Positions 26,066-59,958 of a stretch of 64,000 bases of DNA are shown here, piece by piece (position 1 is the first letter of the stretch; each line of letters opens with the position of its first letter). A program made the position numbers and the translations under genes. The notes beneath the pieces were generated by a model. That model was given only the letters and a program-made list of their open reading frames with translations, did no database searches and was not told where the DNA came from. The stretch comes from a virus. The stretch is from positions 1 through 64,000 of IMG/VR virus record IMGVR_UViG_3300003323_000257; one strand, 5' to 3'.

Positions 26066-26088
26066 CAGTACGAAAAGGAGACCCAGGG

Positions 26089-26247: not shown

Positions 26248-26578
26248 ACGCATCACTCTTGAGTCCATGAGAACCAGCAAGGCCTTGGTCTGGCCATCGA
26301 ACATCACGTGGATGGCAGGTGATAAACCTCTGCCTAACCCGGAGAATGTCGAGTTCTTCCGCGTGCATACCTCGTGGGATGGATACACATCGGTGATTGC
26401 GATGCCTAAGCCAACCTCTGGAGGCCTTCGTAGGAATAAACCTCGTATGTGGTGGTGCACCACGGATCGTCTCTGGAAATGTCAACGAGGTTTTATACAA
26501 GGGAGAGGCACCACTCAGTCCTACGCCTATCATGACTGCGTAGTACAGACCACCAAGAGGAACCTATGGCACTGGTAA
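26225..26578 (+). CDS. hypothetical protein (KPR..W.C..G.G family)
   Basis: KPRMWWC...WKC..GFIQGRGTTQSYAY. Confidence 0.6.
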   Translation: MQIQPINKRITLESMRTSKALVWPSNITWMAGDKPLPNPENVEFFRVHTSWDGYTSVIAMPKPTSGGLRRNKPRMWWCTTDRLWKCQRGFIQGRGTTQSYAYHDCVVQTTKRNLWHW

Positions 26579-40298: not shown

Positions 40299-40798
40299 TC
40301 GAACTAAAACGTGTTCCATTTGTAGGGGATGAGCGCATCTTGAATATGGTAGATACAATCCGTCCACGTACCAAGATCAAGGTGGAGCATACCGCTGATG
40401 TATTCACAGGTAACATCGTTGTCATTGAAGGAACAGAATACAAAATTCGTTCAGTGAATCCTCACGGTCCTGTCTCCAAGGGCAACTGCTTCATTCGTGT
40501 TTCTCGCACCTCAAAAGAGAAACGTCTACAGGCGAAGGATCTGTGTGTCTACACGATCCTAAAGTTTCTTGCTGTTGCAAAGAAACCTGTGACGTGGTCT
40601 ATGGAAGTTCCAAAGGAAGATACCGTTGCCTATGCACTAACTGAGATAGATAGCACAAACGTTAAAGTTTTGCTCCGTAAGATGGCTAGCTTAAAAAGGC
40701 AAGGATACGTTAGCGGTTGTGCGTGTGGGTGTCACGGACGTTTTGAAATAACGGATCAAGGACATGCAGCATTAATTGAACTTCAAAACGAGATTTAA
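40295..40798 (+). CDS. hypothetical protein with C-terminal wHTH-like GCACGCHG motif
   Basis: KMASLKRQGYVSGCACGCHGRFEITDQG. Confidence 0.7.
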   Translation: MIELKRVPFVGDERILNMVDTIRPRTKIKVEHTADVFTGNIVVIEGTEYKIRSVNPHGPVSKGNCFIRVSRTSKEKRLQAKDLCVYTILKFLAVAKKPVTWSMEVPKEDTVAYALTEIDSTNVKVLLRKMASLKRQGYVSGCACGCHGRFEITDQGHAALIELQNEI

Positions 40799-40799
40799 T

Positions 40800-43700
40800 A
40801 TGCTTGAAACCAGATTTTTATTCCCGTTTGACCAAGAAGGCGCCTACGAACTAAGCATACCTAAATGTGCTTCCTGGGAATCTTCCAAGACCAAGATTTT
40901 GGTCTTGCTGCAGACGGTTGATGGGCGTGATCTTAAAGCCAAAGGTATGCTGGCCGACAAGATGGTGCGACAATGCTTCACCAATGCACTGAAATACGCG
41001 CAGACCTACGCACGGACCTACAAGGAGGAATTGAAGCAGTCTGCTTATGTGGTTGCTCCGTTCAATCGCAAACGCCACCTGAACCTTAAAGGTGCGGCTC
41101 GAAAAAGCGCTGAACTAGAATTCGCAGAACACGCCCACAAGCTGATTAAGAAGCTAAAGCCGACACACGTTCTGATTTCTGGTGACGAGGCGTTTCATGC
41201 CATGTGGCCTAAAATAGAACACCACACCTACAAGCGTGGCTGGGTTCATGATCTTGAATCGAAAGGTCATAAGGTAAAGGTTACATCGACTCTTGACTTC
41301 TCTCGTCTGTTGGAGAAAAAAGGTGAATACGCTAACCTGTTAGGTTTCTGGTGCAGGCACTTCGCGCACCTAATGCTCGGCCGTCACCCTCATTCGTTAA
41401 AAGGATTAGAACCTACCGTAAGGTACGTGGACACTATCGAGAAGTTCGACCGTCTCATGGACCGTATGGAAGACGAGTCTGAGTTTTCGACTGACACGGA
41501 GACACGTGACCTCTCTGTGCTAGGTAATGCCATCTATACGATTCAATTCGCCTTGGGGTCCAACCCAAGTGTTGGATACGTGATCCCAGTGGACCATCCT
41601 CTGCAGGATTGCTGGACCAAAGAACAGCGCAAGCATATCAAAAAACGACTGCGCAAGTTGTTTGCGTCTAAAAAGAAAAAGCTTATCGTCGGCATGAACA
41701 TCATGTATGACCTTAGGGTTATCCGCAGGTGTCTAAAGATTCCAATCATCTGGCATGACGTATGGGAGATCACCGCAGGTGAGCATGACCTGGACGAGAA
41801 CATTACAGAACTTGCCAACTTTAATTCCAAGCCAGGTAATCTGGCGGCCATCTTAGGTTCGTACGAATGTTCCTTCTATTGGGACAACTCTTTTGGTAAG
41901 GAAGATCGTTCAACCATCGCTGCTGTTAAGCCTACAGATAAAGGCTTCCAGCGATACGGAGCAATGGACGTTGTTAGTCTTCTGCACATCAAGCCACAAC
42001 AGATTAAAAGGGCGGCGCACCAATTCATCGAGGGACAGTCCTATAAGCCTTATTACGTAAGGCACATGATTGACCAAATGGGTGACACCGCCCATCAATT
42101 GTCACACCTTCGTGAAGACGGATCCTTGGTGGACGTTAATTATCTTCGACACCTGGTCTCCCCAGAAAGTCCTTTGAAGACTGAGATGAAACGACTGGCC
42201 TCGGAGTTTAGGCTGTTCCCTGAGGTGCAGGAGGCTAATCAGCGAATTCTTGGCGAATCTGGAATGAAGGCCAAAGGTTTGTTCGGAAAGTCCAAGGCTG
42301 CCGCCAAATGGGCGCTTTCGATGACCAAGCCTGCCCACCTTAGGGTTCTGTTCTTTGATGTGATGGGTATGGAGCCTGTCAACGAGACTGTCCAAGGAGA
42401 GAAATCAGTAGACAAGGCGTTCGTCACCGAAAACGAGGCGCGTAATCCTGTGGTGGCTGCTTATGGTGAGCACGCAAAACTTGGCAAATTGCTGTCAACC
42501 TATGCCAAGGGTTGGTTGAAGAAATTACGTTCCAATCGCGACTCAGCGGAAGATCAACATTTACGTGCTGACTATTCCTTCTTTGACGTAGCAACTGGAC
42601 GCCTGAACTCCAAGAATCCTAACCTGCAACAAATTCCTTCGCGTGGCAAGCTGGCAAAGATCATCAAAAAGATGTTCGTGGCCAAGAAGGGTACATTGCT
42701 GGTTCGTTACGACTATTCTGCACACGAGGTTCGTGTGTGGTCCTACGTAGGCAAGGATCAAATCCTCGCGGGCATCTTCAAGGTCGGTCAGAAGCTCCGA
42801 CAGCAATTCATTGTTGATCCCTCAGAAGAAAACGCGAAGGCTATCAAACTCAAGGGTGACATTCACATTCTGAACGTCAAACGGTTACTCGGCAAAATTG
42901 TCGATAAGAGCCATCCACTTCGAGACGCCATTAAAGCTGTTATCTTTGGTCTGCTGTACGGCAAGTCTGCTGAGACTTTAGGTGAGGACACGAAGCTCGG
43001 TGACAAGCAAGCTCTGATGAAAATCATCGGAGACAAAGAGGCTGACGTTAAGGCAAAGAAGGAAGCAGAGAAAAACCTGCGCGCACTTATGGCAGAGGAC
43101 CGCACTTCTTACGCGCAAGGTCTGATTGATAAGGTCTTCCAAGAATTTAAGGGAGGAGCCAAGTGGACCAACAAAATGAAAAAGTTGGTCGAGACCGAGT
43201 ACTACGTTTATAGCCCTATTGGAAGGATGCGCCGTCTGTACGCAGCAATGACTGGCGATCGCGGTATCGTTAATCAGCAGATTCGTAGGGGCTCTAACGC
43301 ACCTATTCAAGGGTTCGCTTCTGAGATTGGCATCAAGGCTGGCCGTTTAATTATGGAACTCTACTACAAGGAGCTGCCTAAGTTTTGTGAGTTCCTCGAT
43401 ATAGAATACGACGACTGGGAGTTGCGTGTTCCTTATAATCGAGTTGTCCATGATGCATCATACTATTCCGTTATGTATTCGATGGTAATTCCATTCACTC
43501 ACATATTACAATATGCTGCGACTTATGGAGTAACTGAAGTCTACGCAAAGGAGTTCAACGTTGAATTTCCTGTAGAGCCAGAGATCGAGATGGAATTTGG
43601 GGTCCGTGACGATTCCACCCACAAGTGGGACTGGAGTATTCCTAACATTGTTGACTCTATCGTTAAGTCAATTGACCAAGCCGAGGAACTGAATTTGTTG

Positions 43701-43871
43701 GAAGGTTCAAAAGATGAAGTCTTGAAGACCATTTTCGAACCATGGCGGAATAAGAAAATGAGGACTTACCTGCAGTCGAAATATCCGTTGCTAGGTGTAA
43801 AAAATCTTGACCGTCAGATAACAGAGGCACTTACCGTGGTTTATGGAAAGAAAGGGAAGGAGACTGCCTGA
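40800..43871 (+). CDS. polA: DNA polymerase family A with 3'-5' exonuclease and N-terminal extra (UDG-like?) domain
   Basis: Exo I DTET, Exo II NIMYD, Exo III YGAMD; PNLQQIP; motif A DYSAHEVR; motif B RDAIKAVIFGLLYG; NAPIQG; motif C VHD. Confidence 0.93.
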   Translation: MLETRFLFPFDQEGAYELSIPKCASWESSKTKILVLLQTVDGRDLKAKGMLADKMVRQCFTNALKYAQTYARTYKEELKQSAYVVAPFNRKRHLNLKGAARKSAELEFAEHAHKLIKKLKPTHVLISGDEAFHAMWPKIEHHTYKRGWVHDLESKGHKVKVTSTLDFSRLLEKKGEYANLLGFWCRHFAHLMLGRHPHSLKGLEPTVRYVDTIEKFDRLMDRMEDESEFSTDTETRDLSVLGNAIYTIQFALGSNPSVGYVIPVDHPLQDCWTKEQRKHIKKRLRKLFASKKKKLIVGMNIMYDLRVIRRCLKIPIIWHDVWEITAGEHDLDENITELANFNSKPGNLAAILGSYECSFYWDNSFGKEDRSTIAAVKPTDKGFQRYGAMDVVSLLHIKPQQIKRAAHQFIEGQSYKPYYVRHMIDQMGDTAHQLSHLREDGSLVDVNYLRHLVSPESPLKTEMKRLASEFRLFPEVQEANQRILGESGMKAKGLFGKSKAAAKWALSMTKPAHLRVLFFDVMGMEPVNETVQGEKSVDKAFVTENEARNPVVAAYGEHAKLGKLLSTYAKGWLKKLRSNRDSAEDQHLRADYSFFDVATGRLNSKNPNLQQIPSRGKLAKIIKKMFVAKKGTLLVRYDYSAHEVRVWSYVGKDQILAGIFKVGQKLRQQFIVDPSEENAKAIKLKGDIHILNVKRLLGKIVDKSHPLRDAIKAVIFGLLYGKSAETLGEDTKLGDKQALMKIIGDKEADVKAKKEAEKNLRALMAEDRTSYAQGLIDKVFQEFKGGAKWTNKMKKLVETEYYVYSPIGRMRRLYAAMTGDRGIVNQQIRRGSNAPIQGFASEIGIKAGRLIMELYYKELPKFCEFLDIEYDDWELRVPYNRVVHDASYYSVMYSMVIPFTHILQYAATYGVTEVYAKEFNVEFPVEPEIEMEFGVRDDSTHKWDWSIPNIVDSIVKSIDQAEELNLLEGSKDEVLKTIFEPWRNKKMRTYLQSKYPLLGVKNLDRQITEALTVVYGKKGKETA

Positions 43872-44581
43872 TGCAGCCTTTATCTTCACAGGAAAGAGAG
43901 CTGTCCCCTATTGAACTTCGCAAGCGTCGACGTAAGATAGTAGTAGTTCTAGGTTTTCGTCGCAGTGATTTTGAACTCTGGTTAAGGAAATGGAAAACCT
44001 TTTGCTATTGGGCCGAGGAACGAACTTCCATTAACAAGCTGCATTTTCCTCTGTACCTAGTAAAAGCACACGAGGCTGGTATAAAACGTCCTACGCAAAT
44101 AGGAAGAAAGCGCAATCAATTCCAACTTGGACGGATAGGAGATAAAGGTGGCTATACCAAAGCTAATTGTCGATTCATAACAGTCCAACAGAACCAGGAA
44201 GAGCGCAAGCTTAATGGTGGAACTGCTATAGCAGTTGAGAAGGCAGCAAGAATACGAAGAGGACAAACGAAAGAGACCGATGAACACATAGCATCCATGG
44301 CTGAAAAGTTACGTGGGCGCTCTATGCAGGATCATGAGTACCTAGCTGCGGCCGGTAGAAAGCGAGGTCGTGCCTTTAAAGTAAAATCACCCTCAGGAAA
44401 ACGCATTACAGGTCAAAGTTTAAATGCTCTCTGCAAGGAATATGGATTAAATCAATCCATGATGAGCAAACTTTGTCGCGGGGATATTGAAACGTATAAA
44501 GGTTGGACTGGTAGGTACACCGAGCCGTTAAAACCATGGTATCGTATAAAGGAGAAGGGATGCAAGAAAGCCGCTACGTAA
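43871..44581 (+). CDS. free-standing HNH/His-Me-type homing endonuclease with C-terminal NUMOD1/IENR1-like HTH
   Basis: LGRIGDKGGYTKANCRFITVQQN; C-terminal SLNALCKEYGLNQSMMSKLCRG...KGW. Confidence 0.65.
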   Translation: MQPLSSQERELSPIELRKRRRKIVVVLGFRRSDFELWLRKWKTFCYWAEERTSINKLHFPLYLVKAHEAGIKRPTQIGRKRNQFQLGRIGDKGGYTKANCRFITVQQNQEERKLNGGTAIAVEKAARIRRGQTKETDEHIASMAEKLRGRSMQDHEYLAAAGRKRGRAFKVKSPSGKRITGQSLNALCKEYGLNQSMMSKLCRGDIETYKGWTGRYTEPLKPWYRIKEKGCKKAAT

Positions 44582-44930: not shown

Positions 44931-45611
44931 ATGACCATTCTAGGTTCCCTTGTTTTACATTCAGACCGACCTGTCCCTGAATTCGAATTGCCTGAACTTA
45001 AGGGACTACATAAGCGAGAAGGGCACCATGTCGGGTCCCGACACAACGGAAGCTTCCGAGAGTACTTCGACCTAGAACCCCTTGAACTGTTGGTTCCACA
45101 GAGATACAAACGTATGACTGTTCTGGCCTCCGACAACGTGAAACACGAATTGTCTGCTGAGCTTTCTACGCTGGACTCGCAGTTCGAAGGTGCTCGTCAA
45201 TTATTCAAGCTCCAGAAGTTGTTGGACCGCTTTCAAGGCCAATGGTTCTCGGTAGTCAACGTCTCCAATTTTGGTGCTGATGGTACGGCCCAAAGCGGTG
45301 GATTCTATCTATTGAGTTCAGATCATCCTCTGCACATCGCACTGGTCTTCGATTCCAATTCAGGATCAGTTCAATTGGTGTGGGCAACGTTTGATTTCAA
45401 ACGTTCCTTAAGAGAGCAACAAGGCTTCAATTATTCCTTCTTTCTCCTACCAACTGAAAGGCGTATGCCCTTGTTTGTGCCCTCTCAAGCCTTATGTAGT
45501 AAATGGTGGAGACTAACGCAAAGTTTTGATGGCCAACGGTACGGACTGTTAAAGGCCTGTAACGCCATCGAAATGATCCTTTACAAAAATCCTCACGCCG
45601 CAAAGCTATGA
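44931..45611 (+). CDS. hypothetical protein
   Basis: RBS GAGG. Confidence 0.7.
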   Translation: MTILGSLVLHSDRPVPEFELPELKGLHKREGHHVGSRHNGSFREYFDLEPLELLVPQRYKRMTVLASDNVKHELSAELSTLDSQFEGARQLFKLQKLLDRFQGQWFSVVNVSNFGADGTAQSGGFYLLSSDHPLHIALVFDSNSGSVQLVWATFDFKRSLREQQGFNYSFFLLPTERRMPLFVPSQALCSKWWRLTQSFDGQRYGLLKACNAIEMILYKNPHAAKL

Positions 45612-46615
45612 ACTATGTCGAAACTCAGTCCAAGTTAGATTTCGTACGTAATCAACTGTCACAGTACGCTGGCCCTAAAAAGGAGCAAAGTGGATCGATC
45701 TTCGTCCTCTGTCCCTTCCACTCCGAGCGCACTCCATCGTTCAGGATTTTCGTAAACGAGACTACCAAGAATCCTGGATATGGAAAATGCTATGGCTGCG
45801 GCCAATACGGAGGATGGGATAAATTGGCTCCAATGTTAGGCCTCAAACCTTTCAAAAAGGAGAAGCCTACTGAGGAGTACGCTAATTTTAGGTTACTTCC
45901 TGACGAGGAGGCGGAAGAAGAGCAGGATTTCGTTCAGGAGCCGATGAAGTTTAGTGATCTTCCGAAGAACAAACGTTGGCGTGGCATATCAACTAATCTG
46001 CTGATTGACTTAGGTGCCCGAGTGTGTCGACCGATCAATAAAGAATATGGCTTGCTGAAACCACGTCTGTGGTTACCTGTTTACATTAACGAAGAACTTA
46101 GGGGCTACATCAAAGCCCGCTTCAGGAAACATCCTGATTGGCCGTCATACATAAATGCCAAAGGTCCGTGGTCAAAGACTCACGGCCTATTTCCTTTTGA
46201 CCACTCCATCAAGCTAATGCGTTCCCTTGAGTCCAAGACTATGGTTCTCGTTGAGGGTCAACGAGATGCATTAAGATTGATCTCTCACGGTATACCTGCT
46301 TTGTGTATTCTAGGCACTCAAAGTTGGAGCTCCTCTAAGGCCAAATTGTTGGAGCTCGCTGGAGTGGAGAAGCTTATCCTTCTGTTTGACGGAGATGATG
46401 CAGGCAAAGAAGCGACTGAACTTATTTTACCAAAGGTGCAATTCATGTTCAGTGTGAAGACCCTAAAGCTGTGGTCTATGAAGGGTAGTCCTTACATTCA
46501 ATTCAAAGACGAGGAGCATCCTAGCAAGGCCGCAAAGAAGGCAGACGTAACCTTGTGGGACCCTGGCAATATGCCAGAATGGATAATCAACAAAATCAAA
46601 CGAATATATTTCTAG
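45608..46615 (+). CDS. DNA primase (Zn finger + TOPRIM)
   Basis: CPFHSERTPS...CYGC; VEGQRDA; FDGDDAG. Confidence 0.9.
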   Translation: MNYVETQSKLDFVRNQLSQYAGPKKEQSGSIFVLCPFHSERTPSFRIFVNETTKNPGYGKCYGCGQYGGWDKLAPMLGLKPFKKEKPTEEYANFRLLPDEEAEEEQDFVQEPMKFSDLPKNKRWRGISTNLLIDLGARVCRPINKEYGLLKPRLWLPVYINEELRGYIKARFRKHPDWPSYINAKGPWSKTHGLFPFDHSIKLMRSLESKTMVLVEGQRDALRLISHGIPALCILGTQSWSSSKAKLLELAGVEKLILLFDGDDAGKEATELILPKVQFMFSVKTLKLWSMKGSPYIQFKDEEHPSKAAKKADVTLWDPGNMPEWIINKIKRIYF

Positions 46616-47204: not shown

Positions 47205-47494
47205 ATAGGATTAGTTTGTGGCTACTGGCTCCCTTGCTTTTGGTAGGCTGTGCGGATCAACCAGTCAAGCAAAAACCTTTGGAAGACGTGGTGCTAGTGC
47301 CTGAGAAGAAGACGGTATCGATCCCTGACGAGACATTACGAGAGTGCGATCCTCTGCCAAAAATGGAGGAGCGAAAGTACACAGAAGCTGAAACGCTTGA
47401 TTTTATGCAGTCCCTGGTTACCAACCAATCCGACTGCCGCAAAAGGAAGAGCGACGAAACGCAAACTCTAAAGAAGGCGTTCAATAGTAAATAA
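47201..47494 (+). CDS. outer-membrane spanin lipoprotein (Rz1-like)
   Basis: Lipobox LVGC, Pro-rich, two further Cys. Confidence 0.7.
   Translation: MNRISLWLLAPLLLVGCADQPVKQKPLEDVVLVPEKKTVSIPDETLRECDPLPKMEERKYTEAETLDFMQSLVTNQSDCRKRKSDETQTLKKAFNSK
47485..47493 (+). promoter_or_regulatory. putative late promoter TAGTAAATA upstream of queD
   Basis: Embedded in 3' end of o-spanin gene. Confidence 0.55.
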
Positions 47495-47569
47495 TTGGTA
47501 TCAAGGAGCCTTACAGAACTCATACCGAACTGTCAGGCTTTTCTCACCTTCGTTATGGAGTTCCTTTAA

Positions 47570-48019
47570 ATGCATTATTCGACTAAGACGTATGGGCATG
47601 AGATCGGCCTATCCTGTGTATTTCGTCAATGGAGGGCTGAAAGCCATTGCCGTTTGGCCCATGGTTATGCACTTTCCTTTAAGTTCATATTCGCTGCTGA
47701 AGAATTAGACCACAGAGGGTGGGTTTGCGATTTTGGAGGACTGAAACCTCTAAAAGGTATTCTTGAAGACACCTTCGACCATACTTTCCTGGTAGCTGAA
47801 GATGATCCTAAGTTCGATGTAATAATGGATCTTGATCGAGTTCACGGTATTGCAAAAGTAGTGCCTGTCCCTGCGGCTGGATGTGAACGCACTGCCGAAA
47901 TGGTCTACGAGGTGGCAGAACAATGGCTCAAGGATGCAGGGTACAGTCCTCGCGTTCGCTTGGTATCTGTGGAAGTTTCCGAACACGGTGCAAACAGCGC
48001 CATTTACACGAAAGATTAA
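47570..48019 (+). CDS. queD: 6-carboxy-5,6,7,8-tetrahydropterin synthase
   Basis: STKTYGH...HCRLAHGY...DFGGLK...FDH...CE..AE...V.VSE...N.A. Confidence 0.9.
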   Translation: MHYSTKTYGHEIGLSCVFRQWRAESHCRLAHGYALSFKFIFAAEELDHRGWVCDFGGLKPLKGILEDTFDHTFLVAEDDPKFDVIMDLDRVHGIAKVVPVPAAGCERTAEMVYEVAEQWLKDAGYSPRVRLVSVEVSEHGANSAIYTKD

Positions 48020-48020
48020 C

Positions 48021-48377
48021 ATGGGAAAGAAACTAGTTTGGGTAACCTTTCAGCGCAAAGGCTTTCACTTCTATCCAGGTGCACCTAGTGAGGTAGCATA
48101 TCTGCAGGATCGTCATCGCCATTTATTCAAGTTCAAGGTGAAGATTGAAGTCTTCCACGATGACCGTGAAATCGAGTTCCACATGTTCCTGAACAAGATC
48201 GAAAGCTGGTACGACAGCGGAGCACTGGAACTCAATCATAAGTCCTGTGAAATGCTGGCAGATGATCTGCACGCCAAGCTTAACAAAGAGTATGGCGGGA
48301 CCGGCAGGCCTCGCGAGTGCGTTATCGAGGTGTCTGAAGATGGGGAGTGTGGCGCTGAGTGCCACTACATGGTATGA
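48021..48377 (+). CDS. dpdL: QueD-like T-fold protein, DpdL-type (candidate CDG decarboxylase)
   Basis: LQDRHRHLF = LxxxHRHxF signature; SCEMLA; VSEDGE. Confidence 0.65.
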   Translation: MGKKLVWVTFQRKGFHFYPGAPSEVAYLQDRHRHLFKFKVKIEVFHDDREIEFHMFLNKIESWYDSGALELNHKSCEMLADDLHAKLNKEYGGTGRPRECVIEVSEDGECGAECHYMV

Positions 48378-48919
48378 AAGACAGCTCCGCCGTAAAGGAC
48401 TTTACTGGCTTAAAGTTTCCGCCTGCATCGATTGAATACGCAATGTTCGAGGGCTTTGAGCAAGAAGGTCCGTTAAAAGGAAAGTTCACGTTGTTCATTG
48501 TAGGTCCTATGCCTTATGAAGATATCCTGGCTCAACTGTCCATTAAGGACTATGACCAAATTTATTTCGGTGCAGGTGGCCGCTTCGATTACCACCCAAA
48601 ATCTGTTGAAGTCGTTTACAAGAATATCAATTCGGACGTTATCGTTACTGTGGAGAATCCAGTAATAGATTTTGACTTGATGGACTCCTGCGAGAACTTA
48701 CATTGGATGTGCCCTATGGTCTGGCATGGTGAAGCTGTTCCGAATGCGATGGCATCTTTGGCCAAGCTCAGTGAAAAGCCACGCTACTATGATGACACCA
48801 TTATAGTGAAGATTGACACTGGGTTGGCCACCTATTCTGCTTACTACGGCGCTTTAAAGCACTCCAGCTATGGTGACTACTCTGCTGACAAGCTGATAAT
48901 GCAAAAGGAAAGACAATGA
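48374..48919 (+). CDS. conserved hypothetical protein of deazaguanine cluster
   Basis: ATGA-coupled both sides; F.G.E.EG...TLFIVG...IYFGA. Confidence 0.75.
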   Translation: MKDSSAVKDFTGLKFPPASIEYAMFEGFEQEGPLKGKFTLFIVGPMPYEDILAQLSIKDYDQIYFGAGGRFDYHPKSVEVVYKNINSDVIVTVENPVIDFDLMDSCENLHWMCPMVWHGEAVPNAMASLAKLSEKPRYYDDTIIVKIDTGLATYSAYYGALKHSSYGDYSADKLIMQKERQ

Positions 48920-50085
48920 AGATTTTTTACATGGGACTAGAGAAGGTAGAGTCTCGCTACAGTCATCAGCTCACTGATTGGAACACCTCGGAATTCGAAC
49001 GCCTAGGTGTACCTTATCGAGTTGTGACTGGCTCGGAAATTCCAGCAGTGCAAGGTCAGATCGTTAATGGTTCGGTTCTTGATGCACACGGACGTACCTA
49101 CTATGCGATGACTCAAATGTCTTCCTTGGTAGCGATGATGCAAGCTGGCGAAGTAACTGAAAACGATGTGGTCTTCTTTGAGGACATGTTCACACCGGGT
49201 ATCGAAAGCCTGGCGTACATTATGGCCCAAACACCAGATAAATATCGGCCACGAGTGTACGTTCGTTGTCTGGCTCAAACTATTGATCCAGACGATTTCG
49301 TTCATCGTACTGGCATGTTTGATTGGATGCGACATTTCGAACTAATGTTGGATTCCTTCATCACTGGTATCCTGGTGGCTTCTGAAGAAATGGTTGCCCA
49401 TCTTCGTATCGCAGGATTCAAGTCCAACATTTATGTTACAGGTCTCCCGTTCGGCAAACAGGAAGTTCGTTCGCGAGTACCTCACTTGAAGGCTCTGTCC
49501 GATCGCCCTAAAGTTGTGTCATTCGCTTCACGCTGGGACGATGAAAAGCAACCATTCTTCTTCCTCCAAGTAATGGATGCGGTAAAGCAGTTGGATCCCT
49601 CTATCCAATTTCAGATCCTTACTGGAAACAAGACACTGAAGTCCAACAACGAGAAGGCCTTGCATGCTGCTAGGTCGTACGATAACAGTTGGCTTACCAT
49701 CAAAGAAGGTCTGACCAAGAATGAGTACTATCAGGAACTGGCAAACTCACGCTTGCTTATGAATACCGCACTCCAAGACTGGGTGTCAAACACAATCTCT
49801 GAAGCGGACACCCTAGGGTGTATGACTTTGTTCCCTGCGTATAGGTCCTTCCCTGAAACAGTCGGTAACCGTCCAGAGCACCTATATCTGCCATGGTCTG
49901 TGGAAGATGCTGCAGCAAAGCTGGTTAAACTAATTAATCTGGAAATGACCCAGCCTGACATTGGTAAGATTTCAGATTATCAAGACCGCTCAATTGTGAG
50001 GACAGTGAAAGTACTAAAGGGCGGCCAATCATGGGCGCGCAATACCTTAGGTTACCGTCAGCACGTCGCACGTACCAAATTCTAG
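48916..50085 (+). CDS. GT-B fold (GT4-like) glycosyltransferase
   Basis: FASRWDDEKQPFFF...YYQELANSRLL...EADTLGC..L.P...SFPE. Confidence 0.8.
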   Translation: MKIFYMGLEKVESRYSHQLTDWNTSEFERLGVPYRVVTGSEIPAVQGQIVNGSVLDAHGRTYYAMTQMSSLVAMMQAGEVTENDVVFFEDMFTPGIESLAYIMAQTPDKYRPRVYVRCLAQTIDPDDFVHRTGMFDWMRHFELMLDSFITGILVASEEMVAHLRIAGFKSNIYVTGLPFGKQEVRSRVPHLKALSDRPKVVSFASRWDDEKQPFFFLQVMDAVKQLDPSIQFQILTGNKTLKSNNEKALHAARSYDNSWLTIKEGLTKNEYYQELANSRLLMNTALQDWVSNTISEADTLGCMTLFPAYRSFPETVGNRPEHLYLPWSVEDAAAKLVKLINLEMTQPDIGKISDYQDRSIVRTVKVLKGGQSWARNTLGYRQHVARTKF

Positions 50086-50091
50086 TAAATA
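50083..50091 (+). promoter_or_regulatory. TAGTAAATA motif overlapping GT stop codon
   Basis: Read directly. Confidence 0.5.
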
Positions 50092-50100
50092 GAGGTACCT

Positions 50101-50130
50101 AGGCTGAGCCAGTCAAGGCTCAGCCTTTTC
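50101..50130 (+). terminator. terminator-like hairpin
   Basis: aggctgagcc-agtcaa-ggctcagcct tttc. Confidence 0.65.
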
Positions 50131-50147
50131 CTACCTATGAGGTTCAA

Positions 50148-50948
50148 ATGGACGCACCAAAAATTCGTAAATTCGGCATTATCGGTACCTCTTGTGCCGG
50201 TAAGACCACTCTGGCCCATACCTTGGTCGGCCGTCTTAAGTCATACGGTATCCTTGCTGATGGCTTGTTTAGCCAGGACCGGAAGTTCTCGTTTGATAAA
50301 AAATATATCGAAACAGAGGAAGCTCAGAATTGGATGATCTGCAATCTGATCGCGAAAGAGGTGGACCTGAGCCTACATGGAGACGTGGAAGTGTTGATCA
50401 CTGATAGGACTCCTATTGATCTGTTTGCCTACTACTCTCACCAACATAACACGCGATTGAGCGAAGCTTGCTGGAACTACGCTAAAGAGTGGGCTAAGAC
50501 CTACGATGCCTTGTACTTTCTGGAACCTCTTCCTTACCAGGATGATGGAAAGCGCCCATCGGATGATTTCAGGCTGGCTGTAGACGCGGAACTTCGTTTC
50601 CTAATTAAGATGATTCCTAACGTGTATCAGTTAGGACGGCATGAAGTTATGAATGACATCCTAAAGAGGATTGGCTTTAAAAAGCCTGGAGTGAAGATGG
50701 ACTTTACTCCCAAGGATGCTCAGACTCTGGCCAACCATATTCAACGCTCCTTGGTGGTCAAGCGCTCGGAAATAAAGGATGCACTTTCTGATTACGACGT
50801 GTGGATCTTAGCAGGATTGGACTTCAACATTCAATCTGTAAGATCCTATGCATCAGGTCTGTTTGGAACTTTCGTTCCCCTGGAAATCAACCTTGCTGTT
50901 TCTACGGAAACTCTAACTTTTGAATTCGACCGTTATGACCCAGAATAA
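50148..50948 (+). CDS. P-loop NTPase/kinase (NadR/AAA_28, TMP-kinase-like) with C-terminal extension
   Basis: GTSCAGKTT; ITDRTPID; YDALYFLEPLPYQDDGKR. Confidence 0.8.
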   Translation: MDAPKIRKFGIIGTSCAGKTTLAHTLVGRLKSYGILADGLFSQDRKFSFDKKYIETEEAQNWMICNLIAKEVDLSLHGDVEVLITDRTPIDLFAYYSHQHNTRLSEACWNYAKEWAKTYDALYFLEPLPYQDDGKRPSDDFRLAVDAELRFLIKMIPNVYQLGRHEVMNDILKRIGFKKPGVKMDFTPKDAQTLANHIQRSLVVKRSEIKDALSDYDVWILAGLDFNIQSVRSYASGLFGTFVPLEINLAVSTETLTFEFDRYDPE

Positions 50949-52359
50949 TAAAAGGCGGCCCTTTGGATACGTGTTGGCTGCCATAACTGCGCGCTCTCCA
51001 TCGTCTTTCATTGGCGTCAAATACGAAGACAACTCTAAGAAGCCGTATCTGTGGAAGCGAACACGCTTTAACGGATTGACCACTCATTGGACTCCTGATC
51101 GCACCATCTACTATGGCTCGCCTGGACCAAGGGCGAACGCTATTCCTACTGTTGACCTGGACGTAGTGTTTCCAATTAGCGCTCCGACAGAACCAGAGGT
51201 ATTGGTGAACGCCGGATTCGACTACGCTATGGCCTCTCCGCACCATGTTAGTGCTGGATCGGAGACCCGGAGAAACGATAAGGTAAAGCTGTTCTGTGAC
51301 TCAGGTGGGTTCCAGTTAATCAGTGGAGCCTTGGACTGGGTGGACATGGATGAATTGGCAGACACGTACAACAGAACCATCGATTACGGAATTGGCCTAG
51401 ACATACCTACGCCAGGTGAGCTACAGAAAGACTTCCTGATGCGTATGTGTGACGTGATGATCAAGAACAATCGCTATCTACGCAGCAAAGTTGTACCTGA
51501 AGTAGAGATTTATGACGTGAGTCACGGTAACACCTTACAGTTGAGAGCCAAGTTTTTGGATCGCGTATTGGCCGAAAAGAAGAAGGAACGTCGCGATGGT
51601 CAAGGATTGGCGATCGGTGCTATCGCGCAAAACTTTAAGGATGGCGGTCAGCGCCAAACTGTGGTTACTGGGTCGGTTAATCTCATATACACACTGTTAA
51701 AATCCAAAGGCCTGTACGAGAGATATCACGTATTAGGAACAACGAATTCGTTTTTTCAATTTCTGTACCACGTGCTTCTCCATTATGAAGTGGCCCCACA
51801 CATTACGGCGGACTCGACGTCCTACGTTTTGCCTGCGACGTATAATCTGATGATCGCCAACAAATTGGCTCCAGACCATTCCTTGTTATCGTTGGAGCTT
51901 CCAAAAGAGGAGCGCTCCTATACGTTGAACTGTAACTGTCCTGTGTGTTATCACGTAAAATATGCGCGTGAGTACCAGCTAATGTACATGACTAATACCT
52001 TACATGGTATGTATGCAACGGCCAACCAACGCGACCGAATCGAGGAAATAGCAGGAGAATACTTGAGGGGACGTATTGGACTAAATGAAGCGCTCTCGGT
52101 GTGTACCGGTGAACCTGCTTCGTCTCTCAAGGTGTACACAGCCATCGTAAAGTTTGCTATCGAGGCCGCCGAAAAAGGTTTTAAAGAAGCCTGGCTTTAC
52201 CATGAGAAAACATTGAATGGCTTAATGCGAGGTTCAGTCTCCACAGGCGGTTTGTTCAACAAAGGCACCAAGGCAATGTCTTCTAAGGCTAAGCGACTGG
52301 ACTCCATCCTTACTCGCTTTGAAGAGTTCCATGCAGCTAAAACAAAGGGACGCAAATGA
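50935..52359 (+). CDS. dpdA: TGT-fold DNA-guanine transglycosylase (DpdA family)
   Basis: FCDSGGFQ, LDIP, SHG, YHVLG, ADSTS, CNCPVC...H Zn site. Confidence 0.8.
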   Translation: MTQNNKRRPFGYVLAAITARSPSSFIGVKYEDNSKKPYLWKRTRFNGLTTHWTPDRTIYYGSPGPRANAIPTVDLDVVFPISAPTEPEVLVNAGFDYAMASPHHVSAGSETRRNDKVKLFCDSGGFQLISGALDWVDMDELADTYNRTIDYGIGLDIPTPGELQKDFLMRMCDVMIKNNRYLRSKVVPEVEIYDVSHGNTLQLRAKFLDRVLAEKKKERRDGQGLAIGAIAQNFKDGGQRQTVVTGSVNLIYTLLKSKGLYERYHVLGTTNSFFQFLYHVLLHYEVAPHITADSTSYVLPATYNLMIANKLAPDHSLLSLELPKEERSYTLNCNCPVCYHVKYAREYQLMYMTNTLHGMYATANQRDRIEEIAGEYLRGRIGLNEALSVCTGEPASSLKVYTAIVKFAIEAAEKGFKEAWLYHEKTLNGLMRGSVSTGGLFNKGTKAMSSKAKRLDSILTRFEEFHAAKTKGRK

Positions 52360-52847
52360 AGATACTCAAGGTTCGTAATCTGTACGGCTACCCTTCGTAC
52401 ACCGACGCCATTGTGGAGTACAGCAAGTCCATAGGAGCTTCTCTTATTCTGGATCGCACTTCTTTGTTGAAGGCTCCCAAGGAGTGGAGGATGTCCAATA
52501 AGCCAAAAATCTTGGTCGACTCCTTCACGGCCTTCCTGCAAAGCGAGGTTCCTATCATTGGCTACAAGAATGATAGAGGTGTGTATCTCAAGGATTCGCG
52601 ATTACCCCATCGAGAGCATTTGGTAGACAACGTATGTCAGGTGAAGATACCTTCCAATCTGAAGCGCGTTCCATCTAAAGTGCTGGCCTCCGCTTTGAAA
52701 GCCAAGGTCAAAAAAGACTTCCTGGACTCTATTGATCCTGAGGATCCTAACTATAAAGTGGTCAAGGGCATGATAACGATTCACCTCCCTGCGTCCTTAA
52801 AGGACCCATTCACCAAAGTAAATAAGAAGACAAAGGAGAACACATGA
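52356..52847 (+). CDS. basic hypothetical protein within deazaguanine cluster
   Basis: ATGA-coupled to dpdA and queE. Confidence 0.75.
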   Translation: MKILKVRNLYGYPSYTDAIVEYSKSIGASLILDRTSLLKAPKEWRMSNKPKILVDSFTAFLQSEVPIIGYKNDRGVYLKDSRLPHREHLVDNVCQVKIPSNLKRVPSKVLASALKAKVKKDFLDSIDPEDPNYKVVKGMITIHLPASLKDPFTKVNKKTKENT

Positions 52848-53647
52848 AAACCATCATGATTCAAAACCAAGATCGAAATATGAGTGCACGAGATTACCCG
52901 GACTCCACATTTCTACGTGTAACCTCAATGTTCCGAACCCTGCAAGGTGAAGGTCCATTCGCAGGCTTTCCAGCCGTGTTCCTTCGACTATCTGGATGTA
53001 ACTATGGTAGCAAAACGGATATGTGCACCTGGTGTGATACTTCCTTCCAATTTGACCATGGGCAGCTGCATACGATTGACCAGGTAGTAGCAGAGCTAAA
53101 TCATTTGGAAGGACGTCAGCCTTCTGACATTCTGGTAATCACTGGAGGGGAACCAACTCTTCAAAAAACTTTGCTAGGACTGATTTCAAAGGTATGGGCC
53201 AACAAATATTTCAAAACCATTCAAGTGGAAACCAATGGTACGCAGCCAAAGTTCTTTGAAGATGCTGAAGAGATGGGTCTCCTAGGTAAGGATAAAGTCA
53301 CCTTTGTAGTCTCACCGAAAGCTAACGAACGGCTCAAGAAATATCCTCAGGTTCACCCTAAGGTTAAATGGTGGGCGGATTGCTATAAGTTTGTCCTGTC
53401 TGCTGAAGAAGGTGACGCGCATCACGAAATTCCTGAATGGGCATTAACCGAGAAACATAAGCCTGTGTATGTAAGCCCTATGACAGTATACCTAAAACCA
53501 TATCAGGGTGAGGTGTCCTCTATTTGGGACGCTGACCTGGTGGATCAGGAACGCACCGCAGCAAACTACGCATACGCCGCTGCTTACGCCTTAAAACATA
53601 ACCTGCGTCTGAGTGTGCAAATGCACACCCTGACTGCCATAGCTTAA
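52844..53647 (+). CDS. queE: 7-carboxy-7-deazaguanine synthase (radical SAM)
   Basis: TLQGEG..AG.PAVFLRLSGC...CTWCDT; ITGGEP; ETNGT; VVSPK; LSVQMH. Confidence 0.92.
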   Translation: MKTIMIQNQDRNMSARDYPDSTFLRVTSMFRTLQGEGPFAGFPAVFLRLSGCNYGSKTDMCTWCDTSFQFDHGQLHTIDQVVAELNHLEGRQPSDILVITGGEPTLQKTLLGLISKVWANKYFKTIQVETNGTQPKFFEDAEEMGLLGKDKVTFVVSPKANERLKKYPQVHPKVKWWADCYKFVLSAEEGDAHHEIPEWALTEKHKPVYVSPMTVYLKPYQGEVSSIWDADLVDQERTAANYAYAAAYALKHNLRLSVQMHTLTAIA

Positions 53648-53656
53648 AGGACAAAC

Positions 53657-54325
53657 ATGAGTAAGACCAACGCTCAACTGGGACAGCAGATACACAAACA
53701 CCTGGAGGTGCTAGGTATCGAGACCCCTATGTTTGAAAATTCTCCGTCCGACCAGCTTAATATGATTACCAAGCTGGATCGCGTAGAGAAGCATTTTGCG
53801 GAGATCATGAAGTTACTCCAACTTAATCTTAATGATGACTCTCTAAGAGAGACACCAAGGCGAGTGGCAAAAATGTTTTTGAACGAGATTTTCTCCGGTC
53901 TTGATTACAATAATTTCCCTAAGTGCACCGTGATCGATAACAAGATGGGTGCTGACGAAATGGTGATCGAACGTAACATCACCATGAACTCCACTTGTGA
54001 ACATCATCTGTTGCCTATTATCGGGAAGGCACACGTAGCATACATTCCAGGTGCTAAGGTACTTGGTCTGTCCAAGATGAATCGGATTGTTCAGTTCTTC
54101 GCTGCACGTCCTCAAGTTCAGGAACGGTTGACTCTGCAAATTCATGCCGCCCTGTGTTTCATTCTTGAAACCAAAGACGTTGCGGTGGTAATCGAAGCCG
54201 AGCATATGTGTGTAAAGACCAGGGGCGTAGAGGACGCTTGCAGTGACACAGTGACTTCCAAAGTAAGTGGTGTATTCCGTAACCCAGTAACTCGTAATGA
54301 GTTCATCACCTTTACACGAAAATGA
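53657..54325 (+). CDS. folE: GTP cyclohydrolase I
   Basis: ETPRRVAK; STCEHH; GLSKMNR; RPQVQERLT; HMCV..RGV. Confidence 0.95.
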
Positions 54326-54843
54326 GCATACACATAACTGAACACGGCCGTGATCTGGTGATCCTAGATATCGACGGCTGTTTATTGGACTCGGACTCGC
54401 GTCTACCGCATTTGCTGGCAGGTGATCGTGAGACCTACGACTCTCTCCATCCCACGGATCGTACGTGGCCGGCAGGCCATGCAGTGTACCGCATGTTTCA
54501 ACGCCATCCAGACGTAACGGTGTTGTTCGTTACTGCTAGGCAGGAAAATGCCAGGCACTATACAATGGAGCAGCTTAACCGAGCATTAGGTAGCAGCTCT
54601 CCTGTTATGCCTTGGCAACTGCTGATGCGCCCTACAGGGTGTTCCGATCCAGATATTATCTTGAAGCCTCGTTTGATAGAGGAGGCTGGATGGTCTTTGG
54701 AGCGTATTCTTGTGGTAGTTGAAGACAGCGACGCCACTGTTGCTATGTGGCGATCCAAAGGAATTGAATGTTGGCAGCCGCGTTCAAGCACCCACAACAT
54801 AAACACAGTGCAGCTGGCAATCGATTTAAACACTAGTAAATAA
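54322..54843 (+). CDS. HAD phosphatase, polynucleotide kinase/phosphatase (PseT C-terminal)-like
   Basis: LDIDGCL; FVTAR; LLMRP..D...K; VEDS...[13 protein letters not shown]. Confidence 0.8.
54834..54842 (+). promoter_or_regulatory. putative late promoter TAGTAAATA
   Basis: Embedded at 3' end of HAD gene; RBS GAGG follows. Confidence 0.6.
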
Positions 54844-54879: not shown

Positions 54880-55845
54880 ATGACGACTGACCAAGATTTC
54901 AACATCGCTGATTTGAATTTTCTGACCGAGGGATCGGTTTTCACCCGAGAGGACGGTCGGATGGCTCGCTTCCTGTTCCTGACCAACCAATCTCTGTCGG
55001 AAAAAATGAAGCAGAAGTTTCCACCGCAAGTGGTTTATGCAGACGAGAACGATAATATTCTCAGCTGCGACATCGACCGTTTCCTGGCTAAACGCAAGTT
55101 TGTTAATGTCATTCCTGAGTTGGAAGAACGCCTGCTCAATCTGCTTGCTGCCACCTCTTCGGAATCTGAAGAAACTCTGGACCTGGACTCCGATGATGAC
55201 CAACTGATCATCGAGGATACAGAATCGAGTGAATCCCAAGAAGGCGATCAACCTGCAGGAGACGATTTCATTGACAGCGATGAGAAACCTGTGGTTACTT
55301 TGCTTGCATCTCGTGATGATCTGCCTGTGGTAATCAATGTGGACCAATTTACTCAAGCCGTGTCGTCCTATCAGCAGAATCCAGGTGTCGAACCAGGCAC
55401 GCTGCAGCACACGCTGTTTATCCGCGAAGAGCCAGGCATTAGCAGCGAAACCATCTACGCTGCATTTAGCCCTACGCACGCGGACAAGAACGTTACCTAT
55501 GAGTTTCAAGTGGAGTACGAAGGTGAGAAGCGCACCGTCGAATGGGATACTTTCGCAGGTATCTATCCTGCAATCTTCTTCGGAAGCCGTATGTTCCAAG
55601 TGATCTTCTACGGTCCGCGAGTTCCTGCTGCAAGCTTGGTGGCCGCCGAGGAGTTGGCTCAGGAAAACACTGAGGTTATTACCGCTGCACCTGACGTGGA
55701 AATTCAACAAGGTCAACTGGTAGCCATCAATGAAGCCGGTCAAGCGGTTCCGGCGCAAGCTATTTCTAATCCTGCGGCTCAACCTGTTCAAGTGCAGGTA
55801 CAGCCTGTGGCGCAGGTTCAAGTCCAAGTGCAGGCCGCACAGTAA
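54880..55845 (+). CDS. acidic protein with Q/V-rich C-terminal tail
   Basis: ...QPVQVQVQPVAQVQVQVQAAQ; monocistronic between promoter and terminator. Confidence 0.75.
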   Translation: MTTDQDFNIADLNFLTEGSVFTREDGRMARFLFLTNQSLSEKMKQKFPPQVVYADENDNILSCDIDRFLAKRKFVNVIPELEERLLNLLAATSSESEETLDLDSDDDQLIIEDTESSESQEGDQPAGDDFIDSDEKPVVTLLASRDDLPVVINVDQFTQAVSSYQQNPGVEPGTLQHTLFIREEPGISSETIYAAFSPTHADKNVTYEFQVEYEGEKRTVEWDTFAGIYPAIFFGSRMFQVIFYGPRVPAASLVAAEELAQENTEVITAAPDVEIQQGQLVAINEAGQAVPAQAISNPAAQPVQVQVQPVAQVQVQVQAAQ

Positions 55846-55852: not shown

Positions 55853-55899
55853 AAAGCCCAGTCATGGTCCTAAGAGCTGTGGCTGGGCTTTTTCTTTTT
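55853..55899 (+). terminator. intrinsic terminator
   Basis: aaagcccag...ctgggcttt then T-rich tail. Confidence 0.75.
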
Positions 55900-58540: not shown

Positions 58541-58749
58541 CTGACACCGAAGCTCTTCACCGACTTTCCATTGGTGAAACCTTATACGTAGGCATCTGGG
58601 CGTACACGCGAAGTAGCCGCTACATGACGTGTGGGTGCTGCGACGACTCGGACGACTTCGAGGACATTGACGAGGCTATGGACAGCCTGCGCAAATGCAC
58701 CGACAACTTCACTCAATCATTCATCAATCTAAAGGAAGACAATGAGTAA
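58525..58749 (+). CDS. hypothetical protein
   Basis: CGCC motif. Confidence 0.65.
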   Translation: MSRILTDTEALHRLSIGETLYVGIWAYTRSSRYMTCGCCDDSDDFEDIDEAMDSLRKCTDNFTQSFINLKEDNE

Positions 58750-59668
58750 CTTACTGACCGACCGTGAGAATCAAATCAAAGTTAAGATCATCGCTGATTC
58801 CGTGGCACCGAATGGTGCGCGAATCACAAGCTACGAACTGGAATACCATCGCTACATTCATGCTGAATTCATGACGCACCGTGTGTTCTCCAAGAATGCG
58901 GCATCGTCGCGAGCTATCCCTGCCGCCAAACTTCTTCAATTGGTGCGAGATGAACCTATGCTGCCTGTACACCTCGGTATGAATCAGGGCGGCATGCAGG
59001 CTCAGCAGGAACTTCCGCCTGACGTACAGCAACGCATTCTGGATGTATGGGAAGAACTGGGCGGCATCATCGCTGACAAGGTGGAGTACTTGGCCTCGTT
59101 GGGTCTGCACAAGCAGGTTGTAAATCGTCCACTGGAGTCCATGCTGCCGATCAAGGTAATCGCCACAGGTACCGAGTACAACAACTTCTTCGAACTACGC
59201 GATTCCCAATATGCGCAGCCGGAGTTTCGCGTCCTGGCGCACAAGATGCGTGTGGCACGTGACGAATCAACTCCTACTCCATTAGCATACGGCGAATGGC
59301 ATCTTCCATACGTTACTACTGAAGATCGCCTGTGGGCAAAAATCAATGTTAAGAATGTCGACCGTACTCTTTGCTGGCTTTCGTCTGCGCGTTGTGCCCG
59401 TGTAACCCACGCACTAGGTGGCCTAACTTCCAAGACAATTGAGGAAGAGATCGGAAAAGGCAAGGAGTTGTTTGCTGTCAAACATATGAGTCCGTTTGAG
59501 CACATTGCTACACCTGCAGACTTCAGTACAGCTACTGAAGATGATGTAAAGGCTCTGATTGACCACCTGGCAACACCTGAATCAACTTGTCCTGCTGTCT
59601 TCGACGTACGCAATCTGCGCGGTTGGCGCTCCATGCGCTCCTACATCGAAAACGGTGAACTTCAATGA
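58742..59668 (+). CDS. thyX: flavin-dependent thymidylate synthase
   Basis: YHRYIHAEFMTHRVFSKNAASSRAIP; HKQVVNR; FFELR...AQPE; SARCARV; HMSPFEH. Confidence 0.9.
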   Translation: MSNLLTDRENQIKVKIIADSVAPNGARITSYELEYHRYIHAEFMTHRVFSKNAASSRAIPAAKLLQLVRDEPMLPVHLGMNQGGMQAQQELPPDVQQRILDVWEELGGIIADKVEYLASLGLHKQVVNRPLESMLPIKVIATGTEYNNFFELRDSQYAQPEFRVLAHKMRVARDESTPTPLAYGEWHLPYVTTEDRLWAKINVKNVDRTLCWLSSARCARVTHALGGLTSKTIEEEIGKGKELFAVKHMSPFEHIATPADFSTATEDDVKALIDHLATPESTCPAVFDVRNLRGWRSMRSYIENGELQ

Positions 59669-59958
59669 AAACCGTATTACATATCAAGGTGGGTTCAGAC
59701 GAGTATCCAGATCCAACTCCTGAGGATCTTGTGTCCGTCTTGGACGAATACACGGCACTATCAGAGACTCCATGGCCTACAGAAGAGTTTCATCTTAGTT
59801 CTGGTGAAGCCTTACTTTGGAAGATTCCAGATACCTACTCCGACGAGGAGCGTGCACATCTAAAATCTATGGTGGACTACGCACTCCGAGATACGCGAGG
59901 TGCCACCATAGTTACAAAACGAGATATTCAGTTCTATAAGAAAGGGGAAAAGCAATGA
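59665..59958 (+). CDS. hypothetical protein
   Basis: ATGA overlap. Confidence 0.7.
   Translation: MKTVLHIKVGSDEYPDPTPEDLVSVLDEYTALSETPWPTEEFHLSSGEALLWKIPDTYSDEERAHLKSMVDYALRDTRGATIVTKRDIQFYKKGEKQ

Follow-up and report, generated by a model that had tools for sequence, protein, structure and literature searches.

Which DNA base does a phage make when its 7-deazaguanine genes stand in line with a glycosyltransferase (GT), a P-loop protein and a phosphatase? The question is raised by a gene cluster at positions 47570-54843 of the IMG/VR virus record IMGVR_UViG_3300003323_000257. The window analyzed here is the first 64 kb of this 133,922-bp record, for which CheckV gives a completeness of 57%, suggesting a full phage genome of ~200 kb or larger. 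A preliminary description, made from the sequence alone, had proposed that the extra enzymes add a further step to the 7-deazaguanine pathway and so give a new DNA base. Judged by family assignments and gene neighborhoods, the locus is a QueC-less DpdA/DpdL 7-deazaguanine cluster, and we put a probability of roughly one half on reading it as a whole as a system for a sugar-decorated 7-deazaguanine. The more specific proposal, that the virion DNA of this lineage and of the much larger GT/DpdL clade to which PA5oct, ACP17, BCSR5 and BUCT-ZZ01 belong would carry glycosylated 7-deazaguanine, is advanced only tentatively.

Core genes of the cluster

The whole interval is filled by ten tightly packed open reading frames (ORFs) on the plus strand: queD, dpdL, orf186, the GT gene, the P-loop gene, dpdA, orf163, queE, folE and a gene for a HAD phosphatase. 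All ten lie where the preliminary description had placed them, and its account of most of them as translationally coupled also held. ATGA overlaps occur at five junctions (dpdL/orf186, orf186/GT, dpdA/orf163, orf163/queE and folE/HAD), the gaps at queD/dpdL and queE/folE are 1 nt and 9 nt, and that between the GT and P-loop genes is 62 nt.

In the established pathway, FolE, QueD and QueE make 7-carboxy-7-deazaguanine (CDG) from GTP; DpdA enzymes swap guanine in DNA for a 7-deazaguanine. QueD (6-carboxytetrahydropterin synthase, 47570-48019) matched PF01242 (8.9e-17) and phrog_2389 (2.5e-41). QueE (the radical-SAM CDG synthase, 52844-53647) matched Radical_SAM, phrog_2076 (6.4e-43) and TIGR04349 (1.6e-19), and FolE (GTP cyclohydrolase I, 53657-54325) matched PF01227 (3.6e-62) and NF006824 (298 bits).

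The second gene (48021-48377), correctly started at the ATG that lies one base past the queD stop, encodes a DpdL-like T-fold protein of the proposed CDG decarboxylase family. It bears LQDRHRHLF, fitting the LxxxHRHxF signature, and in tblastn it matched the DpdL of ACP17 at 5e-33 and that of phiST at 3e-6. Its invariant residues are H16, H32, H34 and S75-C76-E77. DpdL has been described as a QueD paralogue in which LxxxHRHxF replaces the CxxxHGH motif of QueD, with loss of the catalytic Cys, and has been proposed to decarboxylate CDG (Cui et al. 2023, PMC10516641).

The 474-aa product of 50935-52359 (alternative GTG start at 50971) had no match in Pfam as a single sequence. A profile of its family (17 members), however, matched the archaeosine tRNA-guanine transglycosylase (TGT) 1iq8 at 3.6e-7, in an alignment that spans the catalytic DSGGFQL as well as the zinc-binding CxCxxC..H; all family members keep DSGGFQ, D281-S282 and C321/C323/C326/H345. 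A PF01702 match had been precomputed for one relative, and the protein itself, with an isoelectric point (pI) of 9.1, is 33% identical to a Motura protein annotated as a tRNA guanine transglycosylase. By these profile matches the gene product is a DpdA-type DNA guanine transglycosylase. Single-sequence pattern scans of viral contigs, with this protein and with the P-loop protein, returned no relatives. QueC, a purine phosphoribosyltransferase (PRTase), an extended short-chain dehydrogenase/reductase (SDR) and ThyA-type genes were not found in the 134-kb record, which is 57% complete, so that their absence is unproven. With FolE, QueD, QueE, DpdL and DpdA families thus assigned, the identification of a 7-deazaguanine DNA-modification cluster stands.

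A phage-restricted GT4-like glycosyltransferase

The GT gene (48916-50085) encodes a GT4-like, retaining-type enzyme. Its AlphaFold2 model (pLDDT 86, pTM 0.86) shows a GT-B fold of two Rossmann domains. In structural comparison with VIA, the best matches were GT4 enzymes, namely sucrose-phosphate synthase (SPS, 6kih; Z 26.9, root-mean-square deviation 3.6, 343 residues aligned), BshA (3mbo; Z 26.6) and MshA (Z 25.7), followed by TreT, PimA, OtsA and tetrahydrobiopterin glucosyltransferase at Z 23-25. The T4 DNA glucosyltransferases (BGT/AGT) were not among the top 50 structural matches in Foldseek or VIA. On this model, the protein is a GT-B enzyme nearest to retaining GT4/GT20 enzymes, most of which use small acceptors.

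At the sequence level the family is distant from anything solved: a search of its profile against PDB sequences gave nothing significant, and the single sequence scored 17 bits on PF13692, below the cut-off of 27. Glycos_transf_1 (PF00534) was matched by 33 of 36 family members, at best with 2.4e-8. Residues R206, K211 and D288-x7-E296 are invariant in the alignment, and their equivalence to the GT4 donor-binding R/K pair and EX7E was read by eye. No Pfam match to a GTDC1-type N-terminal domain (DUF3524), as in the queuosine mannosyltransferase QTMAN/GTDC1, appeared among 36 GT relatives at E<=1. A predicted complex of the GT with DpdL scored 0.03 against a mark of 0.32.

The family comprises >7,500 relatives at 50-69% identity. 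Among 185,579 prokaryote species genomes only 8 matches were found, all on contigs of metagenome-assembled genomes; six of them have phage-type neighbors, five with a family-B polymerase, and the other two are short fragments. From these searches the GT family appears almost confined to phages.

Co-occurrence of the glycosyltransferase with DpdL and DpdA

The ORFs of the 80 best viral GT loci were clustered and searched with cluster hidden Markov models (HMMs), and counts were taken over the 56 loci with full 8-kb flanks (PA5oct-type loci). DpdL was present in all 56, FolE in 54/56, a DpdA-like protein of 480-540 aa in 53/56, QueE in 48/56 and a purine PRTase in 46/56; the orf186 family and an extended SDR of the nucleoside diphosphate (NDP)-sugar type each occurred in 51/56. 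QueC, the P-loop kinase and the HAD phosphatase were found in 0/56. The DpdA-like family of these loci is homologous to the DpdA family of the window (hhalign probability 97%, E 5e-11).

Megablast of GenBank phages with the nucleotide sequence of the cluster gave no match. At the protein level, the GT adjoins or lies near DpdL in cultured phages of several families: BUCT-ZZ01 (a Kyanoviridae cyanophage), the PA5oct group, ACP17, BUDD, X1 and BCSR5. In ACP17, both the GT and orf186 adjoin DpdL. This record has a family-A replicase, whereas PA5oct, ACP17 and the viral loci have one of family B. Because gene orders and replicases differ among carriers, the GT-DpdL linkage is unlikely to be mere inherited synteny. 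By gene neighborhood, the GT is thus strongly linked to the deazaguanine pathway. The preliminary description had named such a survey as the test on which its glycosyltransferase claim could fail, and the GT does accompany dpdA and dpdL in related phages. The GT was not found within 8-9 kb on either side of DpdL in phiST, RHph_I1_18, Ahp1 and Bakedbeans. We found no paper linking a GT to DpdL/DpdA systems, in line with the earlier statement that no characterized pathway of this kind was known to use a GT-B enzyme.

The same distribution bears on a reading in which the extra genes are unrelated passengers in a conserved hot spot of the replication module. Phage early regions are mosaic, and the cluster does lie within a rightward replication module, among polA (40776-43871), a primase gene (45608-46615) and ThyX (58742-59668). 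Passengers would not be expected to keep GT and DpdL together in 56/56 loci over rearranged gene orders and on unrelated backbones (PA5oct, ACP17, BCSR5, BUDD and BUCT-ZZ01), nor to be coupled by ATGA overlaps, nor to yield the kinase-orf186 fusion described below. We regard this explanation as very improbable; for the GT, orf186 and the kinase it is already disfavored.

A second alternative assigns the GT, DpdL and FolE to a pterin glycoside, an auxiliary metabolite apart from DNA modification, as in the cyanobacterial synthesis of biopterin glucoside by FolE, a T-fold enzyme of the PTPS type and BGluT. Tetrahydrobiopterin glucosyltransferases (5ze7 and 9v0l) are indeed among the structural matches of the GT (Z 23.6-24.0), DpdL is a paralogue in the PTPS/QueD fold, and many carriers are aquatic phages, one of them a cyanophage. 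BGluT is no closer, however, than two dozen other GT4 enzymes, of which the best reaches the Z of 26.9 given above, and the GT accompanies DpdA-like and QueE proteins in phages whose hosts (Pseudomonas, Burkholderia, Xanthomonas and Acidovorax) do not produce pterin glycosides. The co-occurring SDR is of the extended NDP-sugar type and not a sepiapterin reductase, none occurs in this record, and DpdL is without the catalytic Cys of CxxxHGH. A pterin product is accordingly improbable.

A sugar-decorated deazaguanine draws support from the genes found beside the GT in Burkholderia phage BCSR5, which carries the full set of the window: QueD, DpdL (67% identity), the P-loop protein (35%), DpdA (25%), QueE, FolE and the HAD (32%), with a GT that is 24% identical by tblastn and is matched by the HMM at E 3e-133. 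Between its kinase and GT (5976-7343 of the locus) lie a PAPS-reductase-like gene and a PIG-L-like (LmbE-type de-N-acetylase) gene. The latter recalls the MshA/MshB and BshA/BshB pairs and, by analogy, hints at a sugar derived from N-acetylglucosamine (GlcNAc). Tailoring genes beside the GT vary by lineage, with the extended SDR in 51/56 loci and the PIG-L-like deacetylase in BCSR5. This variation points to diversifying selection acting on the sugar itself, such as one would expect for a decoration exposed on DNA. PA5oct, for its part, is refractory to enzymes whose sites contain G, and END nucleases that sense G modification target it; its G is modified, with a chemistry that was not identified (PMC12191111).

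In Vibrio phage Bakedbeans (8221-9372 of its locus), DpdL forms the C-terminal part of the 383-aa annotated gp176, which may be a fusion with an N-terminal domain.

The orf186 family and orf163

The preliminary description had listed two orphans in the cluster, and they turned out to differ. The 181-aa product of orf186 (48374-48919, alternative GTG start at 48359) was matched by the HMM of one of the survey clusters, Cluster-5, at 1.3e-7; its family has 930 representative clusters and no Pfam model. Given its recurrence beside the GT, orf186 is a conserved core member of the GT/DpdL module. Neither PDB nor the Atlas gave a significant match to its profile. In the AlphaFold2 model (pLDDT 64), the top Foldseek row was E. 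coli QueE (E 0.12, probability 0.94, TM 0.38), and the best VIA Z was 6.7, to STAS domains, which leaves no convincing fold match. The idea of a stripped-down QueE finds no support at the sequence level, as hhalign against the QueE profile gave a probability of 0.6%, level with controls. Longer members of the family had no Pfam domain, apart from a portal fragment that was probably fused on in gene calling. One viral locus (L002, 10182-11442) holds a tandem pair of orf186-family paralogues, the second with a long low-complexity tail.

The basic protein encoded by orf163 (52356-52847, pI 9.8), whose gene is coupled to dpdA, had no family and no relatives in any locus searched, and its Atlas model was of low confidence. 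By these searches it is a true lineage orphan, as first described.

The P-loop kinase and the HAD phosphatase

The P-loop protein (50148-50948) is kinase-like and of the AAA_28 type (PF13521, 37 bits against a cut-off of 27). All 39 relatives are AAA_28 proteins and keep an acidic C-terminal domain with invariant KP..K and SDxDxW. The protein also matched phrog_2107, annotated as thymidylate kinase, at 4e-12, and the kinase-type models AAA_18 and AAA_33 match the family, AAA_33 weakly in 8 of 28 relatives. Its profile found nothing significant among PDB sequences.

Relatives of the kinase, DpdA and GT were placed on shared contigs through identical longest-contig sizes, in addition to two viral loci, L092 and L093; a search with the kinase alignment likewise led to two loci. 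The kinase lies inside the deazaguanine clusters of BCSR5, L092 and L093, in four different arrangements in all. In L092 the order is PRT-QueE-QueD-FolE-kinase-422 aa-orf186-GT-DpdL, with tight coupling. Two relatives (P0141 and P0149) bear a C-terminal orf186 domain (BLASTP 2e-11), which ties the kinase to the core module and offers the first functional handle on the 930-cluster orf186 family. From its known neighborhoods the kinase appears restricted to certain lineages but always sits within such clusters. Its proposed place in the pathway is thus backed by synteny and by the fusion, and is qualified by its absence from the 56 PA5oct-type loci.

The HAD phosphatase (54322-54843) is of the PNKP-phosphatase type (PF25109, HAD_PNKP; 54.4 bits against 27.6), with motif I intact as DIDGC. 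A homolog stands directly after folE in BCSR5, the only phage found to share it. The claim that this enzyme belongs to the pathway therefore holds less firmly, and we consider the HAD weakly linked. In L092, a calcineurin-type phosphoesterase (5349-6272) heads the operon and the HAD is missing from the cluster; the phosphoesterase may be a non-homologous substitute.

These two proteins together could instead be a split end-healing pair like T4 PNKP, standing outside base synthesis and either mending nicks and abasic-site breaks left by mass base exchange or countering host anticodon nucleases. The HAD match to PF25109, the PNKP phosphatase domain, and to the PHROG polynucleotide kinase families phrog_415 and phrog_505 speaks for such a pair, as does the weak AAA_33 match in 8/28 P-loop relatives. 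The two genes are, however, unfused and 3.4 kb apart, and the best match of the P-loop protein is to AAA_28 and not to the PNK kinase models. In addition, the sole known fusion partner of the P-loop protein is orf186, a member of the core GT/DpdL module, and this HAD is missing from L092 and L093, both of which have the kinase. We consider an end-healing pair unlikely.

Charge gives a weak hint that the GT, kinase, orf186, HAD and DpdL act on small molecules: like QueD and QueE, these five are acidic or neutral, whereas DpdA and orf163 are basic like the replication proteins.

Elsewhere in the window, at 59955-61088, a 377-aa protein without a Pfam match has a C-terminal region of ~90 residues that matches several PHROGs, one of them annotated as 3'-phosphatase/5'-polynucleotide kinase.

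A swappable tailoring slot and its parallels

QueC-type phage deazaguanine clusters make dPreQ0, dADG and dG+. The Achromobacter phage Motura has a cluster of this kind on a backbone in common with the window (primase 46%, DpdA 33%, QueD 66% and FolE 60% identity), with the same gene order, queD ... dpdA-x-queE-x-folE. In the slot from queD to dpdA, where the window has DpdL, orf186, the GT and the P-loop kinase, Motura has QueC together with an AsnB-like amidotransferase. It has no DpdL, orf186, GT, kinase or HAD. Set against the window and BCSR5, this exchange of slot content looks like a swappable tailoring module. In this lineage the variable tailoring complement would thus consist of a conserved three-gene module (DpdL, orf186 and the GT4-like GT) together with the kinase and the HAD.

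Sugar transfer to a 7-deazapurine has a precedent in huimycin and dapiramicin, 7-deazapurine glycosides of actinomycetes; for huimycin, HuiG uses UDP-GlcNAc on the free 7-deazaguanine base. Their pathways resemble the window in a FolE-QueD-QueE core joined to a glycosyltransferase, and so provide a precedent for glycosylation at the base level. They differ in using QueC and preQ0, in having no DpdA, and in yielding a secreted small molecule; the likeness drawn here is one of pathway. The T4 alpha- and beta-glucosyltransferases share with the window GT a GT-B fold and a phage origin, and decorate a non-canonical DNA base with sugar, evading restriction. In contrast, they act on 5-hydroxymethylcytosine (hmC) made at the dNTP level, and this record (57% complete) has no ThyA-type hydroxymethylase.

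The best structural matches to the GT (Z 24-27) come from the systems of MshA, BshA, SPS/SPP and OtsA/OtsB, in which retaining GT4/GT20 enzymes work with phosphatases. The kinase/GT/HAD trio would be explained by their logic, in which a phosphorylated acceptor receives the sugar and a HAD phosphatase then removes the phosphate, and the PIG-L-like gene of BCSR5 parallels the MshB/BshB-type deacetylases. The window differs from the SPS, MshA and OtsA systems in that its GT has no sequence-level match to solved GTs and its HAD is of the PNKP type.

Proposed pathway and alternatives

We propose that CDG, made by FolE, QueD and QueE, would be turned into the 7-deazaguanine (DG) core by DpdL together with orf186, as has been proposed for phiST. 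The GT would then glycosylate the deazaguanine at the expense of a host NDP-sugar, either ahead of insertion, at the level of the free base or nucleotide as huimycin synthesis does, or once the deazaguanine is part of the DNA. DpdA, from its family membership, would insert the product into phage DNA in place of guanine, giving a sugar-bearing 7-deazaguanine that would block restriction. More speculatively, and in the manner of the MshA, SPS and OtsA systems, the acceptor would be phosphorylated by the kinase, glycosylated by the retaining GT and dephosphorylated by the HAD, and this lineage may route its glycosylated deazaguanine through such a phosphorylated intermediate.

Several points weigh against a sugar-bearing base in DNA. 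DG lacks an obvious hydroxyl to which a sugar could be joined, and the chemistry of the base is not derivable from sequence. The nearest structural neighbors of the GT are GT4 enzymes of small-molecule metabolism, which together with the charge pattern gives a DNA-level step no direct support. The 80 surveyed loci are those of the nearest GT relatives, with a single phage clade perhaps over-represented among them, and neither the kinase nor the HAD occurs in any of the 56 PA5oct-type loci. The HAD, being by sequence of the polynucleotide 3'-phosphatase type, could have a role in DNA repair instead.

A further point comes from the Cellulophaga phage phiST, whose DNA carries plain 2'-deoxy-7-deazaguanosine (dDG) in full replacement of its guanine nucleoside (Cui et al., NAR 2023, PMC10516641). 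Its system is like that of the window in FolE, QueD, QueE, an LxxxHRHxF DpdL, a DpdA of the TGT superfamily, the lack of QueC and an expected anti-restriction role. It differs in lacking, within 8 kb, a GT and a member of the orf186 family as well as a P-loop kinase and a HAD, and in its DpdA3, which has 259 aa against 474 aa in the window and is not matched by the window family profile. Since phiST has dDG without a GT, dDG can be made in the absence of this enzyme, whose product does not have to reach DNA.

The window could thus encode plain dDG in DNA, as in phiST, with the kinase and HAD editing nucleotide pools or serving a pre-replicative route, and with a GT product that is transient or not destined for DNA. 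Variants include an NMP-kinase-like step to deaza-dGTP, removal of dGMP and recycling of guanine or GTP. Such roles fit the thymidylate kinase match of the P-loop protein (phrog_2107, 4e-12) and its AAA_18/AAA_33 kinase models, a MazG-like pyrophosphatase within the phiST cluster, the purine PRTase in 46 of 56 PA5oct-type clusters, and the ADG nucleoside in infected Campylobacter cited by Cui et al. 2023 (PMC10516641). Plain dDG leaves unexplained why a nearly phage-only GT family always accompanies DpdL and DpdA and why the sugar-tailoring genes beside it vary. A pre-replicative route also sits uneasily with the presence of DpdA, and the same authors argue for post-replicative insertion (PMC10516641). 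On balance we judge plain dDG to be rather unlikely.

The sugar-decorated reading also bears on a failed reconstitution: dpdL and dpdA of ACP17 or phiST gave no dDG in E. coli, and missing enzymes were suggested (Cui et al. 2023, PMC10516641). The GT and orf186 may explain why DpdL and DpdA alone did not suffice.

If a glycosylated 7-deazaguanine is confirmed, it would be the first purine with a sugar to be described from DNA of any kind, and a new class of DNA base. To our knowledge, the eight known deazaguanine DNA bases have small 7-substituents or none, and none bears a sugar; the sugar-decorated DNA bases that we know of are pyrimidines, hmC and 5-hydroxymethyluracil (hmU). There would be consequences for evasion of restriction and CRISPR, for recognition by type IV and END-type defenses, for sequencing artefacts and for enzyme tools. 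With its >7,500 GT relatives, the module is widespread in aquatic and soil phages and includes the cultured therapy candidate PA5oct. The prediction is directly testable by mass spectrometry because carriers are already in culture.

Transcription units and genomic context

The sequence TAGTAAATA is found nine times without mismatch in the window, where 0.34 copies would be expected, at 211, 15411 and 25975 on the minus strand and at 26057, 39753, 47485, 50083, 54834 and 63728 on the plus strand, in every case in the orientation of the local genes. It resembles the T4 late promoter, TATAAATA, and is a candidate phage promoter. The preliminary description had the cluster bounded by this motif, which is so for the promoter-like copy ahead of the first unit, on the queD side (47485-47493), and for the copy that closes the cluster on its 3' side and precedes the next gene (54834-54842). 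A further copy that it had missed lies inside the cluster, between the GT and P-loop genes (50083-50091), where a second unit starts. From these three copies, the locus consists of two units, each headed by a candidate promoter, and not one. No preQ1 riboswitch was found in the window, and no Rfam family reached its gathering score there, the queD leader (47494-47569) included.

Genes run leftward up to ~25.9 kb and rightward from ~26.2 kb. The switch point, at 25900-26250, coincides with a change of sign in AT skew and with the two opposed TAGTAAATA motifs at 25975 and 26057. Upstream of the cluster, an HNH endonuclease gene (43871-44581) directly adjoins the stop codon of the gene for the family-A DNA polymerase (40776-43871). 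Directly 3' of the cluster, 54880-55845 encodes a 321-aa protein of no family that is highly acidic (pI 4.06, net charge -36) and is common to BCSR5 and Motura. The opposite strand of this gene bears a full-length mirror ORF, and 3' of the gene lies a strong hairpin that resembles a terminator (55853-55891).

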